Of a DNA stretch of 12,211 nucleotides, positions 1,390 to 10,793 are shown in pieces. Origin of the DNA: a virus; UHGV virus genome UHGV-1627304. The stretch is one strand, 5' to 3'. Positions within the stretch are counted from its first letter, which is position 1; each line of letters begins with the position of its first letter. The notes under the pieces are model-generated. The model saw only the letters and a list, made by a program, of their open reading frames with translations, was not told the origin of the DNA and did not search any database. Both the position numbers and the translations under genes were made by a program.

Positions 1390-2766
1390 TCATACGTCAG
1401 CCCCTTGTGCATATCGTCTGCCACGCGCAGCAGGTGCATTTGATGCTGTGCAAATCTGTCTGGCTTCATCCTGGTCACATGCAACAAAGTGTCCGTTACA
1501 GAACCGCTGGTAAACCGTACCAAGCGAGCCAAAACGGTTTTTCGTCACGATGATTTCAGCAAATGGCGCGGCGCTACTGTTCTCGTCATATACCGCTTCC
1601 CGATAGAGCATGATGATTGAGTCTGCGTCCTGCTCAATGCTTCCTGAATCACGCAAATCTGCGTTTGTCGGGCGTTTGTTTGGTCGCTTCTCAACATCGC
1701 GCGAAAGCTGACTTAGGGAGATCACAGGCGTTTTCAGGTCTTTCGCCATCGCCTTAAGGCTTCCGGAGATGTGAGCAATTGCGAGGTCGTTGCGATCTGC
1801 TTTCGGCTTCTCAATCAGGCCAAGATAATCCACCATGATGAGTGAGAGGTTTGGATTTTCCTGTTTGTGCCGTTCTGCGATTGAGCGTATTTCTTCGACC
1901 GATAACCGCGAGGCATCGACTACCCATACATCCAAATCTGCAAGCTGACTCATGCCGTTAGCAACGCGCGCCCAGCCTTCGTCATCCATCGCTGCAGGAT
2001 TTCGCAGCACACTAACCGACATCCTCCCGGCGTTGGCAATGCTTCGCTCTGCAATCTGCAATGCGCTCATTTCCATTGAGAAAATCAATACCCCGCGCCG
2101 GACGTCAGAACCAGGAATAACGCGGCTTGCAACGCCTTCGGCAATCTTCAGCGCCAGTTCGGTTTTCCCCATACCAGGACGAGCAGCGATTATCACCAGG
2201 TCTTCCGCGTTCATCCCTCCGGTGATGGCATCAAGTTCTTCGATTCCGGTCTTCAGGGTATCGGACTCTTCTCCGTTCCTCAGACGCCTGTCAAGCGTGT
2301 CAGTGTAGTCAGTAATGATTTCCCCTAACCGTACAGGTTTTACCTCGTCACGGGGCTTTCTGATGGCTGAAAGACGCTTTACAAGTTCATCCATCGCCTG
2401 ACTCGATGCGTCGATGGTTCCGCTCTGAATTGGTTCACGCATTTCATCCATGATTTCCAGCACCAGTCGGCGGTGATAGTTATCCGCGACCATTCCGGCA
2501 TATCCCTTCAGGTTTGCGGCACTCGGGCAGTTTTTGCTGGTCATCAGGATTGACGTGAAATGCTCCTCTCCGCACGCCTCGGCAACCATCAGTGCGTCGA
2601 TTAGGTTTCTGTTTCGCGCCTGCTTGCGGATAACCTCGAAGGCTTTCCGGTAGAGCGGAATTGAAAACGCTTCCGGCTCCAGCGTTGCCAGAACGTCACT
2701 GGCGGTTGGTGTTAATCCACCAATCAGCAGGCCACCGATAACGCTCGCTTCGATATCCTGTCTCAT
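1390..2766 (-). CDS. DnaB-family replicative DNA helicase (phage P22 gene 12-like), 458 aa
   Basis: Walker A motif [10 protein letters not shown]; overall DnaB-like architecture and length. Not lambda P (a helicase loader). ATGA overlap with the upstream O-like gene. Confidence 0.9.
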
Positions 2767-3584
2767 GCAATCCCCCTGTCTGCAAACTTCCCTTCCCGAA
2801 CTCCCGTTAACGAGTCTTCTCTCAGCAGGTAATCAAAATCAGCCGTCCAGCCCGTGTCGTTGTCTCCGAAGTAAAACGGCTTGGCCTGATGCACAAACGC
2901 CCTGACATACGCTCTGAAACCGTCCACGTTTGGCGTTTTCAGTTGCGGGATGATTTTCTTCAGGCGGCGTTTGCGTTTCTCGTTGACCGCAACAGCGTGT
3001 GGCAGTCTGTCACCGACTTCGGTGTTGTAAGCGTTCAGGAAGGATTCGTAGTCGATTCGTTCTGCCTTGCGACGTTCAGGTTTAACCTGCCCATCGCCGC
3101 CCCCGTTAGGGGGTAAGGGGGTATTTGTATTTATTGTCTTTTGTATATTGTCTTTTGTGTTTAGCTGACTTGGCTTATACCCATTAGCCGACTTGGCTAA
3201 TGTTTTATTAGCTGTTTTAGCTAATGTTAAGCTGTCCTGGCTAATCCACTGAGAAACCACCTTGTTCACTCCGATTTTCACGCCATCAGCAATGAGGAAT
3301 TTACGCTCAATAAGCTGGCGCTTGGCAGCGCAAACATGAGTGTGATGAATACCTGTCATGGCTGCTATCTGCGTGTTTGTGAGTCGATCCATCGGCTTAT
3401 TGAATCCGTATGTCTTGCGCATGATAGCGAGCATCACCTTCAACTGCCGGACGGTTAAATCAGCCATCAGCAGACTGTCGGTAATCTCGTTAGCAACGCG
3501 CATGAAACCATCTTCGGTATCTGCCACGCGATGCTCCACGACCTCCAGTTGAGGCCTGTAATCAGCTAACTTAACGACGCCCAT
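2763..3584 (-). CDS. Replication initiation protein, lambda O / P22 gene 18 family (273 aa)
   Basis: N-terminal region ([38 protein letters not shown]) resembles the lambda O N-terminus (ADLTKRQFKVLLAILRKTYGWNKPMDRITDSQL, from memory). Iterons and an AT-rich tract lie inside the gene, as in lambda ori. Confidence 0.85.
3121..3245. repeat. Candidate replication origin: four ~19-bp iterons plus adjacent AT-rich tract, inside the O-like gene
   Basis: Iterons read directly: 3161-3179 ttagctgacttggcttata, 3184-3202 ttagccgacttggctaatg, 3208-3226 ttagctgttttagctaatg, 3227-3245 ttaagctgtcctggctaat. Each has a TAGC...GCTA dyad. AT-rich 3121-3160 contains a direct repeat attgtcttttgt x2. Confidence 0.7.
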
Positions 3585-3732
3585 GTTTCACTCCTGCTTT
3601 GGCTAGTCTGTAAACACCAACAAGGCGCTCTGCGAACGCCCTGTTATTTGCTGCGGCTACCACTAATCCCTCAGGTGAATCAGGGTGTCGAATCTCTTCT
3701 TTTTCCTGGTATTTCTTACGACGTTTTGTCAT
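3571..3732 (-). CDS. Hypothetical small basic protein (53 aa) between cII/oop and the O-like gene
   Basis: Own translation: [60 protein letters not shown] 5 nt upstream of ATG at 3732; 3' end overlaps the O-like start by 14 nt. Under 60 aa, so absent from the ORF track. Confidence 0.4.
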   Translation of the reverse strand: MTKRRKKYQEKEEIRHPDSPEGLVVAAANNRAFAERLVGVYRLAKAGVKHGRR

Positions 3733-3744
3733 AATTACTCCTGT

Positions 3745-3820
3745 GGATTGATCCAGTAATGACCTCAGAATTCCATCTGGATTTGTTCAGAACGCTCGGT
3801 TGCCGCCGGGCGTTTTTTAT
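3745..3820 (+). ncRNA. oop: oop-like antisense RNA overlapping the 3' end of cII
   Basis: Plus-strand sequence ...gatccagtaatgacctcagaattccatctggatttgttcagaacgctcggttgccgccgggcgTTTTTTATT matches lambda oop RNA and its terminator hairpin as recalled. 5' end approximate; a possible -10 (ataatt, 3731-3736) lies just upstream. Confidence 0.65.
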
Positions 3821-4058
3821 TGGTGAGAATCGAAGCAACTTGTCGTGCCAATCGAGCCATGTCGTCGTCAACGACACCCCATTCAAGAACAGCAAGCAGC
3901 ATTGAGAACTTTGGAATCCAATCCCTCTTCCACCTGCTGATCTGCGACTTATCAACTCCCACAGCTTCCGCTGTCTTCTCAGTTCCAAGCATTGCGATTT
4001 TGTTAAGCAACGCACTCTCGATTCGTAGAGCCTCGTTGCGTTTGTTTGCACGAACCAT
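3765..4058 (-). CDS. cII: Transcriptional activator CII (97 aa)
   Basis: MVRANKRNEALRIESALLNKIAMLGTEKTAEAVGVDKSQISRWKRDWIPKFSMLLAVLEWGVVDDDMARLARQVA... is essentially lambda CII. Start at the internal Met with the classic TAAGGAAATACTTACATATG ribosome-binding region. Confidence 0.95.
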   Translation of the reverse strand: MVRANKRNEALRIESALLNKIAMLGTEKTAEAVGVDKSQISRWKRDWIPKFSMLLAVLEWGVVDDDMARLARQVASILTNKKRPAATERSEQIQMEF

Positions 4059-4075
4059 ATGTAAGTATTTCCTTA
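4035..4075 (+). promoter_or_regulatory. pRE-like promoter with CII-binding direct repeats TTGC-N6-TTGC
   Basis: ttgcgtttgtttgc at 4035-4048 on the + strand, within the cII 5' end, followed by aagtat as candidate -10. Matches lambda pRE architecture. Confidence 0.6.
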
Positions 4076-4137
4076 GATAACAATTGATTGAATGTATGCA
4101 AATAAATGCATACACCATAGGTGTGGTTTAATTTGAT

Positions 4138-4168
4138 GCCCTTTTTCAGGGCTGGGATGTGTAAGAGC
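4138..4168 (-). promoter_or_regulatory. nutR site (boxA CGCTCTTACA and boxB GCCCTGAAAAAGGGC on the minus strand); tR1-like region lies just downstream at about 4095-4128
   Basis: Plus strand shows gccctttttcagggc (4138-4152) and tgtaagagcg (4159-4168), the reverse complements of lambda nutR boxB/boxA. The cro-cII spacer matches the lambda tR1 region as recalled. Confidence 0.7.
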
Positions 4169-4176
4169 GGGGTTAT

Positions 4177-4386
<210 letters not shown>

Positions 4387-5209: not shown

Positions 5210-5650
5210 ATGAGAGAAGAAAAAATAATAACAATCTACACAACGGCGGTAAAACCCGGGCTGGCAATCACTCCTTTTATGACACCAGATCCTATAATAG
5301 TGTCGGAAGAATACCCTTGTTCCGGCTCATTTTACCTAACTGCAATAATGTACTTCGAGCACGAAAAAAAATACACTACCGAACTTGATGTCGTATTCAA
5401 TGGAGAATCGGTTTTACCTGATATCTCTAGCAATCAAGAGCAACTGCAAACATTTATGTTTTCTCCTGTCAATGAAAAATATGTTGTGGTTGGCACATAT
5501 CTTTTCGTTAAAAACATCAAACTTATAGAAACAGGAACATATGACATAATTTATCGCATCTTTGAAGACATTGATGGTAATCTTAGCGAAGTTATTGATG
5601 AAAAAAAATGCGCTCTTATTTCAACCACCCCGAACAGAGATAAGGAATGA
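5210..5650 (+). CDS. Hypothetical protein (146 aa, no predicted TM segment), first gene of a two-gene cassette at the rexA/rexB position
   Basis: ORF starts 19 nt after the cI stop with AAGGA SD; ATGA overlap with the next gene. Visibly AT-rich. No motif I recognise; not RexA-like in size or sequence. Confidence 0.75.
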   Translation: MREEKIITIYTTAVKPGLAITPFMTPDPIIVSEEYPCSGSFYLTAIMYFEHEKKYTTELDVVFNGESVLPDISSNQEQLQTFMFSPVNEKYVVVGTYLFVKNIKLIETGTYDIIYRIFEDIDGNLSEVIDEKKCALISTTPNRDKE

Positions 5651-6003
5651 AACGACATCTGTACGCTGTGCCTCTTGACAGGAGTAAAGTTGATAATTTT
5701 CCACATAACCACCATAATGATGAGACATATGGTGGTGGTAACGGTGGAGGTGGTGACATGTTACAGCGCATAAAAATTCTTGAAGATAAAGTCGCAACCA
5801 TGGCGACCGACATCGCTGTAATTAAGTCTAACTATGCAACATCTGCCAATGTAGAATCTGTTAAAACAGACATAGCTAATGCAAAAGCAGAACTTCACAG
5901 CGCAATGAGACTCCAAGCCATGGCTATTATTGGTTCAGTTCTTGCAGCCGTTGGAACTGGTGTTGGGTTAATAATAAAAATGATGCCATCACTACCTCAC
6001 TAA
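5647..6003 (+). CDS. Hypothetical small membrane protein (118 aa from ATG 5647, or 82 aa from ATG 5758): His/Gly-rich N-terminus, predicted coiled-coil, C-terminal hydrophobic helix
   Basis: Translation MKRHLYAVPLDRSKVDNFPHNHHNDETYGGGNGGGGDMLQRIKILEDKVATMATDIAVIKS...LQAMAIIGSVLAAVGTGVGLIIKMMPSLPH. Hydrophobic stretch AMAIIGSVLAAVGTGVGLII near the C-terminus. An internal in-frame ATG at 5758 has a better SD (GGAGG, 7-nt spacing). Followed directly by a terminator. Confidence 0.7.
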   Translation: MKRHLYAVPLDRSKVDNFPHNHHNDETYGGGNGGGGDMLQRIKILEDKVATMATDIAVIKSNYATSANVESVKTDIANAKAELHSAMRLQAMAIIGSVLAAVGTGVGLIIKMMPSLPH

Positions 6004-6917: not shown

Positions 6918-6974
6918 CAGGTAACTTAAGCGTATTTACTTTCGCAGCAAACCACTTATTTGAGAGGAATTAAT

Positions 6975-7598
6975 ATGTCATCAATCCGCTTAACTACGAG
7001 AATGAAAGAGAAAATCGCTCGTAACGCTTTAATTAAGTCTGGGGTTTTCACTGAACTTGAAGAAGTAACAAAGTTAAAGAACCAGCTTGCACTTGACGCC
7101 AGAGTTATTGCGTTTGGCGGTAAAAAGAAAACTGAGGAAGTGGATCAGTTATCATCCAGGTTAGTAGCTATAAGTGAAGAACTTGAAAAGATGGGATGTT
7201 CATTTTACTCATACGATGTTCGTTCTACTTCAATTTATCTGACTGTATCTGGCAGAAGGGTTGGATGGCATTCATATGGGAAAGACGGCAACGGCGAAGA
7301 TATATTGCTCCCTACTCCAACCAAAGATAAATGCATGTTTGATGCAGAACACGAAATAACAAAAAGGTTTGATGAAATCTGCGCATTGCAACAAAAACTT
7401 GAAGCCAAGAAAAAGGATATCGAATCAAATGTATGGGCTGCTTTGAACTCAGTCACAACAGTTAAGCGACTTATTGAAGTTTGGCCTGAAAGCAAAGAAT
7501 TGCTACCAAAAGAAGCAGACAAAGCAAGTACAGCACTTCCTGCTTTACGGGTAGAAGATTTGAATAAGATGATTGGACTTCCTTCCGAGTCCGCATAG
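6975..7598 (+). CDS. Hypothetical protein (207 aa), unknown function, at the position lambda uses for ral/sieB-type accessory genes
   Basis: Long ORF with GAGAGGA SD 6 nt before ATG at 6975 (track shows a TTG-initiated extension from 6960). AT-rich. Lys/Glu-rich helical-looking stretches. No motif recognised. Confidence 0.75.
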   Translation: MSSIRLTTRMKEKIARNALIKSGVFTELEEVTKLKNQLALDARVIAFGGKKKTEEVDQLSSRLVAISEELEKMGCSFYSYDVRSTSIYLTVSGRRVGWHSYGKDGNGEDILLPTPTKDKCMFDAEHEITKRFDEICALQQKLEAKKKDIESNVWAALNSVTTVKRLIEVWPESKELLPKEADKASTALPALRVEDLNKMIGLPSESA

Positions 7599-8348: not shown

Positions 8349-9056
8349 ATGGATTTGAACAAATTCGATGAGCCATTCAGCCCTGAAGATATCGAATGGC
8401 GAATACAGCAAAGCGGTAAAACACGCGATGGCAAGGTGTGGGCTATGGTGCTGGCTTATGTCACGAACCGGGCAATCATGAAACGCCTGGACGATGTTTG
8501 CGGCAAAGCAGGATGGCGCAATGAATACCGCGATATTCCCAACAACGGCGGAGTTGAATGCGGCATATCAATCAAGATTGATTCCGAATGGGTAACCAAA
8601 TGGGATGCTGCTGAAAACACGCAGGTAGAAGCCGTCAAAGGTGGTCGTTCAGGTGCAATGAAGCGTGCTGCCGTTCAGTGGGGAATCGGTCGGTATCTGT
8701 ATAACCTTGAGGAAGGTTTTGCACAAACATCTCTCGATAAAAAGCAGGGGTGGCACAGGGCAAAACTGAAGGATGGAACAGGATTTTACTGGCTCCCTCC
8801 ATCGCTGCCTGGATGGGCAATCCCAGCATCAGATAACAAACCATCACCAGAAAATACCAACCAGAAATCTCCATCGGTTGACTGCGAACAAATCCTGAAA
8901 GACTTCAGCGATTATGCGTCAACAGAAACTGACAAGAAAAAACTCATCGAGCGTTATCAGCGTGACTGGCAATTAATGGCTGGCAACGAGGAGGCGCAGG
9001 CTAAATGCGTTCAGGTAATGAACATCAGAGTTAACGAACTAAAACAGGCGGCATAA
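8349..9056 (+). CDS. Rad52-family single-strand annealing protein (phage recombinase), 235 aa
   Basis: Motif region GGRSGAMKRAAVQWGIGRYLYNL resembles the conserved Rad52/Sak-type N-terminal domain. Occupies the position lambda gives to bet. GAGGTGA SD upstream. Confidence 0.8.
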   Translation: MDLNKFDEPFSPEDIEWRIQQSGKTRDGKVWAMVLAYVTNRAIMKRLDDVCGKAGWRNEYRDIPNNGGVECGISIKIDSEWVTKWDAAENTQVEAVKGGRSGAMKRAAVQWGIGRYLYNLEEGFAQTSLDKKQGWHRAKLKDGTGFYWLPPSLPGWAIPASDNKPSPENTNQKSPSVDCEQILKDFSDYASTETDKKKLIERYQRDWQLMAGNEEAQAKCVQVMNIRVNELKQAA

Positions 9057-9524
9057 ATGTCTCACTTGGACGGAATTATTAAAAGATTCGAGTCCAGCTA
9101 CAAAGTTAATGAAACAACAGGTTGCTGGGAGTCTACCTATTCAAAAAACAAAGGAGGATACACAAAATTTGTAGCCTTTGGCGTAACAATGCTTTCTCAT
9201 CGTGTTGCTTTTGAGCTTTATCACTCCCCCATTCCATCTGGGAAGATGGTTTGCCACAAATGCGATAACCCATGCTGCGTTAATCCTGAACATCTCTTTT
9301 TAGGTAGCGCGCAAGAAAACATGGACGACAAGATAGCAAAAGGAAGGCATCGTGGAGCCAAGAAAGGTCATGCTCATCATGGTGCAAAATTAACAGAGTG
9401 GCAGGTTATAGAAATTAGGAAAAGACTCTCTGAAAAAGAGAGTCAGTACAAGATAGCAAAAGACATGGGTGTATCTCAATCAATTATAAGCAACATAAAA
9501 ACTGGCAAGAGGTGGAGCAAATGA
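9057..9524 (+). CDS. HNH homing endonuclease (155 aa)
   Basis: HNH signature ...[58 protein letters not shown]... ATG directly abuts the recombinase stop (TAAATG); its stop overlaps the ssb start (ATGA). Confidence 0.8.
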
Positions 9525-9994
9525 GTTCTCGCGGGATAAATAAGGTGATTATCCTTGGTCGGGTAGGACAAGACCCGGAAGTTCGATACTCACCATCAGG
9601 AACGGCATTTGCAAACCTTACAGTTGCTACGTCAGAACAATGGCGTGATAAGCAAACTGGAGAGCAAAAGGAGCAGACGGAGTGGCACCGTGTGGTAATG
9701 AGCGGGAAACTGGCAGAAATTGCCAGCGAATATCTGCGAAAAGGCTCTGAGGTTTATCTTGAAGGCAAATTACGGACAAGAAAATGGCAGGATCAAAGCG
9801 GACAGGATAGGTTCACTACCGAAGTCATCGTGGGCGTTGGTGGAACCATGCAAATGCTTGGTGGCAAGCAAGGAGGCAATGAACAGTCTTCACCTCAGCG
9901 AAATAACGGTCAGCAACAAAGACAGCAACCTCAGCAGCATGGAAATCACAGCGAACCACCTATGAACTTCGACGATTCGGATATTCCGTTCTAG
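9521..9994 (+). CDS. ssb: Single-stranded DNA-binding protein (157 aa)
   Basis: [59 protein letters not shown]... with C-terminal acidic tail DDSDIPF. Highly similar to E. coli SSB as recalled. Start at ATG 9521 rather than GTG 9512. Confidence 0.9.
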
Positions 9995-10003
9995 GAGCTG
10001 AAT

Positions 10004-10483
10004 ATGAAAATCTGCTCAAGATGCCATCAACAGAAGGAAGAAAGGGACTTTCAAATCAGAAGAGCATCCAGAGATGGATTAACTGCCGCTTGCCGGGCTT
10101 GCCTGGCTGAATACGACAAAGAGCGCGCGGGATTGCCACATCGAGTATCAGCAAGGAGAGAATATCAATCATCGGAACGCGGCAGAGGACGGTGTAACGC
10201 AGCCAAAAAGCGGTTCATTCAGAGCAACCCATGGAAAAGAAAAGCCCACATCATCGTGGGTAATTTTTTGCGCGACGGTAAGCTAATCCGACCACCACAA
10301 TGTGAGTGCTGCGGATCAGAATGTAAACCACAGGCGCACCACTGCGACTACAGCAAACCAACCGATGTGATGTGGCTCTGCAAGTCATGCCATGTCGAGT
10401 GGCACAAACATAACAAACCTATCTACCCAGACGAGGAACCAGTAACTCTCCCCTTCCCTCGTCACGCTATTCACGCAATTTAA
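10004..10483 (+). CDS. Zinc-ribbon / HNH-like nuclease-domain protein (159 aa)
   Basis: N-terminal CxxC...CxxC (CSRCHQQ...CRAC) and C-terminal CECCGSE...AHHCDY...CKSCHVEWH, an HNH-type metal-binding motif. AGGAG SD 6 nt upstream. Confidence 0.7.
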   Translation: MKICSRCHQQKEERDFQIRRASRDGLTAACRACLAEYDKERAGLPHRVSARREYQSSERGRGRCNAAKKRFIQSNPWKRKAHIIVGNFLRDGKLIRPPQCECCGSECKPQAHHCDYSKPTDVMWLCKSCHVEWHKHNKPIYPDEEPVTLPFPRHAIHAI

Positions 10484-10496
10484 TCAGGAGAAAATC

Positions 10497-10793
10497 ATGC
10501 CAGCGCCTTTGTATGGTGCGGATGACGCGCGCCGCTGTTCCGGCAATTCCGTATCGGAGGTGCTGGATAAATTCAGAAAAAACTACGATCGGATAATGTC
10601 GCTACCGCAGGAAACGAAAGAGGAAAAGGAATTTCGCCACTGTATATGGCTTGCAGAGAAAGAAGAACGCGAGCGAATTTACCAGACATCAATCCGACCA
10701 TTCCGCAAAGCAACATATACCCACTTCCCTGAATATATCGACCCGCGCCTGCGTAATTACCGCTCACGCTATGGCGCTATCAGTAATGACTGA
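10497..10793 (+). CDS. Hypothetical protein (98 aa)
   Basis: ORF with AGGAG SD 6 nt upstream; same strand and operon context as its neighbours. No motif recognised. Confidence 0.6.

Follow-up and report, generated by a model that had tools for sequence, protein, structure and literature searches.

A putative free-standing HNH homing-endonuclease cassette in the 5′ end of ssb of a lambdoid Escherichia coli prophage

Introduction

I-HmuI of Bacillus phage SPO1 is a nicking enzyme encoded in a group I intron of the DNA polymerase gene. T4-like phages carry free-standing homing endonucleases, such as MobE and SegB-G, whose genes are wedged in or between conserved genes and occur sporadically among close relatives, a behaviour known as 'intronless homing'. 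These enzymes spread by cleaving, close by, an allele that has no endonuclease gene; flanking markers are co-converted, and the alleles that carry the enzymes have polymorphisms at the target. Some of the enzymes are of the GIY-YIG type, and the phages concerned are virulent.

HNH genes have also been described in two settings closer to the one studied here. The abstract of a study on Skunavirus phages reports I-HmuI-like HNH genes whose number and position vary in close relatives and which cluster by insertion site (PMC12724721). A 2025 survey of lambdoid Rec modules in Genome Res regarded tightly packed HNH genes as likely legitimate members of these modules, and warned of mobility (PMC12315714).

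We analysed a 12,211-nt stretch of the virus genome UHGV-1627304 (the window), in which an HNH gene lies between the gene for a Rad52-like recombinase and ssb. By comparing this locus with its relatives, we propose that the HNH gene is part of a cassette that probably moves by homing and that brings its own replacement for the start of the gene into which it is inserted.

Results

The window derives from a lambdoid, P22-like prophage of E. coli and covers the immunity region and the early-left operon. Genes for NinB, a DnaB-type helicase, an O-type replication protein, cII and cro lie on the minus strand, and those for cI, N, an Nmad5 protein and cIII lie on the plus strand together with the Rad52-like gene. 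The latter (8349..9056, + strand) encodes a single-strand annealing protein (Pfam Rad52_Rad22, 5e-26; PHROG Erf-like SSAP, 3.5e-130) and forms the left flank, or homology arm, of the HNH gene (9057..9524, + strand). On the right follow ssb (9521..9994, + strand; Pfam SSB, 3.1e-38; NCBIfam ssb), the presumed target gene and right flank, whose 157-aa product is 95.5% identical to Sf6 gp27, and then a gene for an Sf6 gp26-like endonuclease (10004..10483, + strand), Abc2 (10497..10793, + strand) and an excisionase-like gene on the same strand of the operon. A putative integrase-like fragment, recognised from its ORF alone, lies on the minus strand at the right end of the window. The gp26-like product has no Pfam HNH_3 match and is distinct from the HNH protein; an NCBIfam search assigned neither the HNH protein nor the gp26-like protein nor the recombinase to a family. 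The last codons of the recombinase gene, ...AAACAGGCGGCATAA, are kept at the DNA level across differing annealing-protein families, and a 3′ end of the AAACAGGCGGCATAA type was found on both Rad52-like and ERF-type genes.

The HNH ORF starts with ATG on the plus strand and encodes 155 aa. As the sequence-only reading had noted, it is tightly packed on both sides, and both junctions can be read directly: upstream, the recombinase stop codon (TAA, 9054-9056) is followed immediately by the HNH start codon (ATG, 9057-9059), giving TAAATG; downstream, the HNH stop codon (TGA, 9522-9524) overlaps the ssb start codon (ATG, 9521-9523), giving ATGA. RefSeq annotation of near-identical loci agrees with the ssb start chosen in the window. 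The Pfam profile HNH_3 (PF13392) matches aa 48-89 with E=1.1e-13 and 51 bits (cut-off 24.8 bits), and PHROG families named HNH endonuclease match the ORF down to E=1.8e-33; RefSeq names the product plainly 'HNH endonuclease'. The ORF is a genuine gene, and a chance ORF is ruled out. A literature search found no description of the protein (WP_000018646 / WP_000018648), and no published description of an HNH element at a phage ssb start, or of an HNH lineage specific for ssb starts, was found either. The epsilon34 paper deals with a separate HNH fusion located elsewhere in the operon.

Three other classes of gene were considered and rejected. A homing endonuclease of the strict intron or intein type is encoded inside a self-splicing element; by its reading frame and junctions, this ORF is free-standing, with its own start and stop, and ssb is restored here by a new start, not by splicing. 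A terminase-associated HNH gene of the HK97 gp74 type is expected beside terminase and portal genes at the cos-packaging end, and the present one is part of the early-left operon, with N/cIII/kil on one side and abc2/xis/int on the other. For a role in a defence system, the one PADLOC hit was a weak match to a 'homing endonuclease' model.

Two domains can be assigned to the HNH protein. A His-Me finger (HNH_3) nuclease domain at about aa 20-97 (9114..9347, + strand) was defined by Pfam, alignment and structural model, with a weak Pfam match to zf-His_Me_endon at aa 61-95. A C-terminal three-helix helix-turn-helix DNA-binding domain at about aa 111-150 (9387..9506, + strand) was recognised from sub-threshold Pfam matches to HTH_38 (aa 111-146) and CENP-B_N, and is presumed to be the specificity module. 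In an alignment of 70 homologues (37-74% identity), C23, R49, H67, C69, D70, C74, N76, P77, H79, N88 and D91 are invariant, and C66 and W153 nearly so. Assigning roles to individual residues by analogy with the family, we predict that H67, N76 and N88 form an H-N-N catalytic motif and that C23, C66, C69 and C74 together form a zinc site.

An AlphaFold model of the protein (pLDDT 90.5) has a beta-rich N-terminal domain with a beta-beta-alpha element (strands 64-67 and 80-83, then helix 85-94) and a three-helix C-terminal domain (aa 114-125, 130-137 and 141-149). The solved structures that Foldseek ranked best were I-HmuI (E 1.1e-3, probability 1.0, 170 columns) and I-PpoI, with marginal E-values of about 1e-3 and a TM of ~0.39; Smad MH1 domains and assorted HTH proteins came next. 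PDB chains searched with the protein sequence yielded no significant match (the best, at E=0.038, was to a designed protein), so that the fold comparison alone was informative. The modelled fold appears nearest to the homing endonucleases I-HmuI and I-PpoI, by a marginal match.

We compared the junction across related prophages using a 1646-nt query that covers the recombinase gene, the HNH gene and ssb. Among phage records, 93 matched this query and none of them (0/93) covers the HNH part. In Sf6, IME10, N7, HK75, mEp235, ES18 and others, both flanks match with 92-97% identity and the annotated annealing-protein gene adjoins ssb; Sf6, IME10, HK75, ES18 and others read rec-TAAATG-ssb, with a flank identity of ~97%. 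In Sf6, the annealing-protein gene occupies locus positions 3001-3708 and ssb 3709-4182, and alignment with this locus shows that the extra segment of the window begins directly after the common TAAATG. The ES18 match comprises the recombinase gene and ssb only (70% of the query), in agreement with the absence of the HNH gene from ES18. No insert at this exact site was found among cultured phages (50,697 records), in which the closest protein, from a Vibrio phage, is 62% identical.

The gene is present in a minority of E. coli prophages. The module was found in 408 of 5426 complete E. coli genomes and the HNH gene in 41 of the 408, leaving ~367 module-bearing genomes (~90%) without it; all 41 copies are at least 99% identical and all lie beside ssb. 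When IMG/VR loci were fetched by the recombinase alone, 9/80 had the HNH gene. The direct abutment of recombinase and ssb that had been predicted for HNH-free relatives is therefore what Sf6, IME10, HK75, ES18 and ~367/408 E. coli genomes display, and the comparison that had been set beforehand to decide the matter found a sporadic gene (41/408), not the universal presence that would have spoken against mobility. In strain E2348/69, two HNH-bearing prophages have near-identical early-left operons, a case in which prophage duplication and intracellular homing are not separable. One locus (H193), in which a 'recombinase' annotation suggested a different upstream partner, has the same upstream gene truncated by an IS66 element.

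In order to define what comes and goes with the HNH gene, we compared alleles with and without it nucleotide by nucleotide. HNH-free loci read ...GGCGGCATAA ATG GCA AGC AGA GGC GTA AAT AAG GTG..., whereas carriers read ...GGCGGCATAA ATG TCT CAC...[HNH]...AAGAGGTGGAGCAA ATG AGT TCT CGC GGG ATA AAT AAG GTG.... The ATG of the HNH gene is thus the ATG that begins ssb in HNH-free alleles, and ssb of the carriers has a replacement start (9521..9536, + strand), delimited by HNH-linked substitutions and consisting of a new ATG and re-coded codons 2-6: AGT TCT CGC GGG ATA in carriers vs GCA AGC AGA GGC GTA in HNH-free alleles. Ten HNH-linked changes fall within 13 nt, at ssb nt +4 to +16 (9524..9536). 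In a site-by-site association of 24 HNH+ vs 65 HNH- haplotypes, the difference in allele frequency at these ten sites is 1.0 at eight and 0.95 at two. Within the 708-nt recombinase gene, no site is associated with HNH above 0.3. Past +30 of ssb the association reaches at most 0.41, because two common ssb variants (A and B) exist, each with and without HNH. Seen from each carrier, the nearest HNH-free haplotype differs at 2-10/992 flank nt, compared with 10/16 of the first ssb nt.

Most of the re-coding leaves the amino acid as it was (Ser AGC to TCT, Arg AGA to CGC, Gly GGC to GGG). For Ser and Arg, the codon is exchanged for one from the other codon family of that amino acid, which changes the DNA maximally while the protein is kept. 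Two replacements, A2S and V6I, are conservative, and A2S is forced by the ATGA overlap. The sequence ATGAGTTCTCGCGG occurs directly after the HNH 3′ end in 45/45 occurrences in the fetched loci, and no re-coded start without HNH was found among 72 HNH-free fetched loci. A Shine-Dalgarno sequence for ssb, AAGAGGTGGAG (9507..9517, + strand), can be read within the codons for the conserved G-K-R-W at the C-terminus of the HNH protein, and an equivalent AAAGGTGG element lies ahead of ssb in homologous loci; we infer that AAGAGGTGGAG serves as the ribosome-binding site of ssb.

Judging from these alignments, the insertion point is inside the 5′ end of ssb, with no intergenic gap. The earlier description of the gene as wedged between recombinase and ssb holds for its position but not for two intact neighbours, as the ssb start codon is occupied and the first ~16 nt of ssb are replaced. 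Because the HNH-linked differences between carriers and non-carriers lie in the insert and the first ssb codons, the unit that comes and goes can be placed at about ~9060..9536; on this delimitation, ssb receives from it a Shine-Dalgarno sequence and an ATG, both new, together with five re-coded codons.

Diversity differs markedly between the insert and its surroundings. In the 25 carrier haplotypes examined, HNH has a pi of 0.003, compared with 0.079 for ssb nt 17-300. Individual HNH+ haplotypes are each nearest to a different HNH- haplotype, and the carriers bear three ssb 3′ variants, each of which is also known without HNH. The very low HNH diversity on many flank backgrounds points to a recent and repeated spread. 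The 37 full-length HNH copies from the fetched loci have 10 synonymous and 2 non-synonymous variants, with no stops and no frameshifts; by this measure the gene is under purifying selection.

Mosaic typing with 97 diagnostic sites pointed to a possible co-conversion tract to the right of the insert (9537..9603, + strand). After its re-coded start, ssb of the window is of B type up to nt +69 (9589) and of the Sf6-like A type from +84 (9604). A chimera breakpoint before +100 was found in 5/36 HNH+ vs 0/72 HNH- loci (Fisher p=0.003, for loci that are not independent), and A/B ssb chimeras with breakpoints elsewhere also occur without the HNH gene. The early breakpoints are suggestive, at most, of variable co-conversion tracts.

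The same layout recurs in other phages. A second enterobacterial group has a recombinase 63% identical and an HNH protein 74% identical to those of the window, with the HNH gene in 3/80 loci. HNH- alleles have ATGGCTAGCAAAGGCGTAAAC where HNH+ alleles have ATGAGTTCTCGCGGAGTAAAC, with identical sequence afterwards; non-carriers also read ATGGCTAGCAAAGGCGTAAACAAAGTGATCC and carriers ATGAGTTCTCGCGGAGTAAACAAAGTGATCC. The upstream gene in this group is Rad52-like or of the ERF type, with the common C-terminus ...ELKQAA*. The sources attribute proteins of this group to Cronobacter, Citrobacter and Enterobacteriaceae.

A further comparison was available in cultured Vibrio phages. The Vibrio lentus phages 1.067.O and 1.003.O have no HNH gene, and erf is followed by an ssb that starts ATGGCATCACGCGGCGTTAATAAAGTAATT. 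In Vibrio 1.079.O, an HNH gene (62% identical) is inserted after ssb nt 14, so that the old ATGGCATCACGCGG is left as an orphan remnant ahead of it. The HNH gene overlaps the new ssb start, ATGAGTAGTAGAGGGATAAATAAAGTAATT, in which 11/20 of the first nt differ, followed by 0/40; erf has 14 differences over 603 nt.

Distant relatives of the HNH gene, which have unrelated upstream genes, also lie directly upstream of ssb and overlap it, among them those in Shewanella (60%), in a locus with an RdgC/FtsK-gamma protein upstream (60%) and in a Gp157 context (51%). In the RdgC locus, the HNH ORF begins with MASKG, resembling an old ssb start. A locus in a planctomycete MAG (47% identity) has RecT, a 41-codon orphan 5′ fragment of ssb, the HNH gene and an overlapping complete ssb; this MAG was the one relative returned by a GTDB scan of one genome per species with a single-protein query, whose peptide patterns reach close relatives only. 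Taken together, the attachment to ssb is constant and the upstream gene is variable (Rad52-like, ERF, RecT, an RdgC/FtsK-gamma protein, Gp157 or an unknown protein). Some relatives of 44-47% identity sit at other sites in unrelated contexts, a change of site that would be expected if the family diversifies by target.

In another prophage locus (L207), this site is taken by the gene for an HNH_3 protein of different organisation, with the HTH first and the nuclease last. The old ssb ATGGCTAGCAGAG opens the ORF, which at its other end overlaps an ssb start that is again re-coded (ATGGGACGTGGAGTTAATCGCGTAATC vs ATGGCTAGCAGAGGCGTTAACAAGGTAATC). HNH_3 genes of at least two organisations thus seem to have landed at the ssb start, apparently a recurrent site of insertion.

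Discussion

We put the probability at about 80% that ~9060..9536 is a free-standing HNH homing-endonuclease cassette inserted in the 5′ end of ssb, where its activity, target and homing are inferred. The proposal that the gene is a free-standing homing endonuclease, first made from the sequence of the window alone, gains from five lines of comparison: presence and absence among relatives, the linked re-coded segment, recurrence of the design in three phage groups, low diversity with purifying selection, and the predicted fold.

The cassette could work as follows. HNH would take over the start codon and the coupling to the recombinase stop (TAAATG) by which ssb is translated in phages that have no element. 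The enzyme would be a monomer of the I-HmuI kind, in which a basic linker joins the His-Me finger nuclease of the N-terminus to a C-terminal helix-turn-helix, and the 3′ end of the cassette would restore ssb expression by means of the Shine-Dalgarno sequence, the new ATG and the re-coded copy of codons 2-6. When a phage or prophage with HNH meets an element-free relative in one cell, the enzyme would nick or cut the rec/ssb junction of the relative, at or near ssb codons 2-6 of the element-free allele. Repair of the break by recombination from the HNH-carrying copy would then copy in both the gene and the re-coded ssb start.

The predicted target is the rec/ssb junction ...GGCGGCATAAATGGCAAGCAGAGGCGTAAAT..., and the predicted natural immune allele differs from it at 10 nt. 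The carrier allele has no intact junction, being split by the insert and re-coded at ssb nt +4 to +16; under our proposal, carriers would be immune because the site is both split and re-coded. We regard the re-coded segment as the putative recognition site and 9521..9536 as a predicted cleavage-resistant version of the target. The re-coded start could alternatively be the donor's own ssb sequence carried along, or an aid to ssb translation.

Among other explanations, we considered that HNH is a working nuclease of the recombination module, a partner of the annealing protein and SSB, so that the packing reflects function and not mobility. Tightly packed HNH genes are counted as Rec-module members in PMC12315714, the adjacency of HNH and ssb is kept in E. 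coli, Vibrio, Shewanella and the planctomycete MAG locus, and many carrier modules are without any other nuclease gene. This adjacency in distant hosts, together with purifying selection on the HNH gene, would fit a protein that works with SSB. However, ~90% of near-identical modules work without HNH, and the earlier suggestion that the gene might serve the module finds no support in a module that so often occurs without it. The window already has a second endonuclease-like gene (10004..10483) as well as Abc2, the upstream recombination partner is not conserved, and an end-processing nuclease is not expected to have a sequence-specific HTH module. The re-coded ssb start, the leftover old ssb starts and the second HNH_3 organisation at the same nucleotide position are also left unexplained. 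We consider a module nuclease improbable.

It is less probable still, and in our judgement very unlikely, that the gene is a passive passenger of mosaic exchange, moved by ordinary homologous recombination at conserved boundaries (the ...AAACAGGCGGCRTAAATG junction and the ssb N-terminus) with its nuclease inactive or irrelevant. Lambdoid early-left operons are indeed highly mosaic, the insert is flanked by conserved junction sequences, Sf6 has annotated 'boundary sequences' nearby and A/B ssb chimeras form without HNH. Against this, the catalytic residues do not vary, and 37/37 full-length fetched copies have an intact ORF, in which 10 variants are synonymous and 2 non-synonymous. A cassette of the same design arose around an HNH_3 gene of another organisation, and HNH diversity is very low over many flank backgrounds.

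The similarity of the predicted target to a host gene has to be considered for the homing cassette as well. The target differs from the start of the K-12 chromosomal ssb at 4/30 nt, with 1 difference in the first 20; what precedes ssb on the chromosome bears no relation to the phage junction. Because the target is almost identical to the host ssb start, the enzyme would endanger the host, except where the 3′ end of the recombinase gene is required for recognition too; whether host ssb would be cut depends on how far recognition reaches to the left.

A domesticated weapon of competition, whose main role would be to attack related phages, co-infecting or resident, in their ssb region (marker exclusion), or else host ssb, with homing as a by-product, can claim this closeness to K-12 ssb (4/30 nt), the purifying selection on the gene and, from the abstract of PMC12724721, marker exclusion by I-HmuI-like HNH enzymes of lactococcal Skunavirus phages, but it is the least credible account, as its activity is mechanistically that of homing and the sequence data do not tell the two apart, any benefit must be modest with ~10% of relatives carrying the gene, and the host gene may escape recognition through its unrelated upstream sequence.

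A bolder extension of the homing cassette, to which we give a small but real chance, is that an old HNH lineage has made the first ssb codons its special target, in enterobacterial prophages as well as in phages of Vibrio and Shewanella and at the planctomycete MAG locus, with a re-coded 5′ end for its target and a ribosome-binding site built into its own C-terminal codons. Host ssb might then be cut after induction, which would couple selfish spread to host takeover.

The kind of mobile gene is already known, and the pattern of presence and absence around this element is an unusually clean natural experiment. It provides a homing candidate in well-studied temperate phages, namely Sf6, HK75 and P22-like E. 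coli prophages. It also calls for caution with Rec modules, since tight packing and translational coupling, lately read as marks of genuine module membership for HNH genes, are here properties of the mobile cassette itself. A selfish insert inside a phage gene start can spare the gene if it brings along a start codon and a ribosome-binding site as well as a re-coded 5′ end. If active, the protein would be a new enzyme that nicks or cuts at a specific sequence and for which a resistant site exists in nature.

How does the cassette compare with the systems described so far? Within the same neighbourhood, the HNH gene of ES18 and the HNH genes of lambdoid Rec modules are likewise packed with genes for annealing protein, SSB and anti-RecBCD functions (PMC12315714). 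The 'endonuclease' gp26 of Sf6 has its counterpart in 10004..10483 of the window, and the HNH gene at 9057..9524 is absent from Sf6, being an optional insert.

In fold, the best structural match to the modelled window protein is I-HmuI (PDB 1U3E), aligned over the whole length. Both have the same order of an N-terminal His-Me finger nuclease, an extended linker and a C-terminal helix-turn-helix, and both are of monomer size with an active site of the H-N-N type, predicted in the case of the window protein. The window protein differs from I-HmuI in being free-standing, in its predicted ssb target, in an extra cysteine cluster and in sequence, with 16% identity.

The free-standing genes of T4-like phages share with the window HNH gene a place among conserved genes and a sporadic occurrence in close relatives. 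Unlike these, the window gene resides in a temperate lambdoid prophage, and its cassette takes the start codon of the target gene and comes with a Shine-Dalgarno sequence of its own, as well as a re-coded 5′ end that replaces the one of that gene. The Skunavirus HNH enzymes differ from the window HNH in host and in insertion sites, and the abstract of PMC12724721 makes no mention of specialisation on ssb starts or of re-coded target replacement. On balance, the closest parallels to the cassette in function are the free-standing homing endonucleases known from T4-like phages and, in Skunavirus phages, the I-HmuI-like HNH enzymes; in fold, the closest is I-HmuI itself.

An apparent landing site at the ssb start

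The rec/ssb site, the junction of the annealing-protein gene and ssb, is occupied in the window by the putative homing endonuclease gene (9057..9524, + strand) and lies at a boundary that is shared by different types of annealing-protein gene. The C-terminal tail ...ELKQAA* is common to the Rad52-like and ERF-type annealing proteins (window 9040..9059 and its equivalents in the comparison loci L028-L033 and L138-L209), and the junction ahead of ssb, AAACAGGCGGCRTAAATG, is conserved at the DNA level behind both types. The junction is a conserved mosaic boundary, which also makes it a good flank for a predicted homing site. The ssb gene downstream (9521..9994, +) is itself a chimera: it is B-type as far as nt +69, and nt +84 onward is of the Sf6-like A-type; the corresponding breakpoint (window 9589..9604) was found in HNH-carrying loci only (3/36).

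In L207 (IMG/VR UViG_2751185933_000001), the same site is filled by a differently organised HNH_3 endonuclease gene (2709..3236), encoding a 175-aa protein with an N-terminal HTH and a C-terminal nuclease domain. Old ssb codons open this ORF, and its end overlaps a re-coded ssb start. Since a second architecture is present at the same position, the ssb start looks like a recurrent landing site. Two prophages of E. coli E2348/69 (L003 and L219) both carry the HNH gene in near-identical early-left operons that differ in their Abc2 allele.

The start of the E. coli K-12 chromosomal ssb (ATGGCCAGCAGAGGCGTAAACAAGGT; L218 1126 onward), when compared with the window from 9521, is near-identical to the predicted target, namely the allele of phages that lack the HNH gene, and does not resemble the re-coded allele of carriers. 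This resemblance raises the question of whether the putative HNH enzyme can cut the host gene.

Other genes of the window

A second endonuclease-like gene, related to Sf6 gp26, lies between ssb and abc2 (10004..10483). It is 99% identical to Sf6 gp26, and its product matches a PHROG 'endonuclease' family (8.6e-47) and carries an HHC...CH..WH motif at its C-terminus; a Pfam search of the product gave no match. As for the HNH gene, its presence varies: it is missing from ECONIH4, E2348/69 and most loci with B-type ssb, where ssb abuts abc2, and at other loci a different filler of ~600 nt takes its place. It may encode either a further mobile nuclease or a genuine nuclease of the Rec module.

Between cI and N, in the position of rexAB-type morons, are two overlapping ORFs of 146 and 118 aa (5210..6003), for which Pfam and PADLOC searches returned no match. 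PHROG matches were weak, to families of unknown function, and confined to the second ORF, whose product is Gly-rich along one stretch and hydrophobic at the C-terminus. Directly after N, the early-left operon encodes an Nmad5 protein of 212 aa (nucleotide-modification-associated domain 5; 6960..7598; Pfam 4e-72).

Possible ssb-associated endonucleases elsewhere

In an Isosphaeraceae MAG (CBDIDH010000002.1; L046 2794..3916), the gene order is RecT, an orphan 5' fragment of ssb (41 codons), an HNH_3 gene and an overlapping full ssb. The HNH_3 product (170 aa) is 47% identical to the HNH protein of the window. Separately, Vibrio phage 199E37-1 (OX241443.1 35677..36244) has an OB-fold/ssb gene annotated beside a 'putative homing endonuclease', which may be one more instance of an endonuclease linked to ssb.
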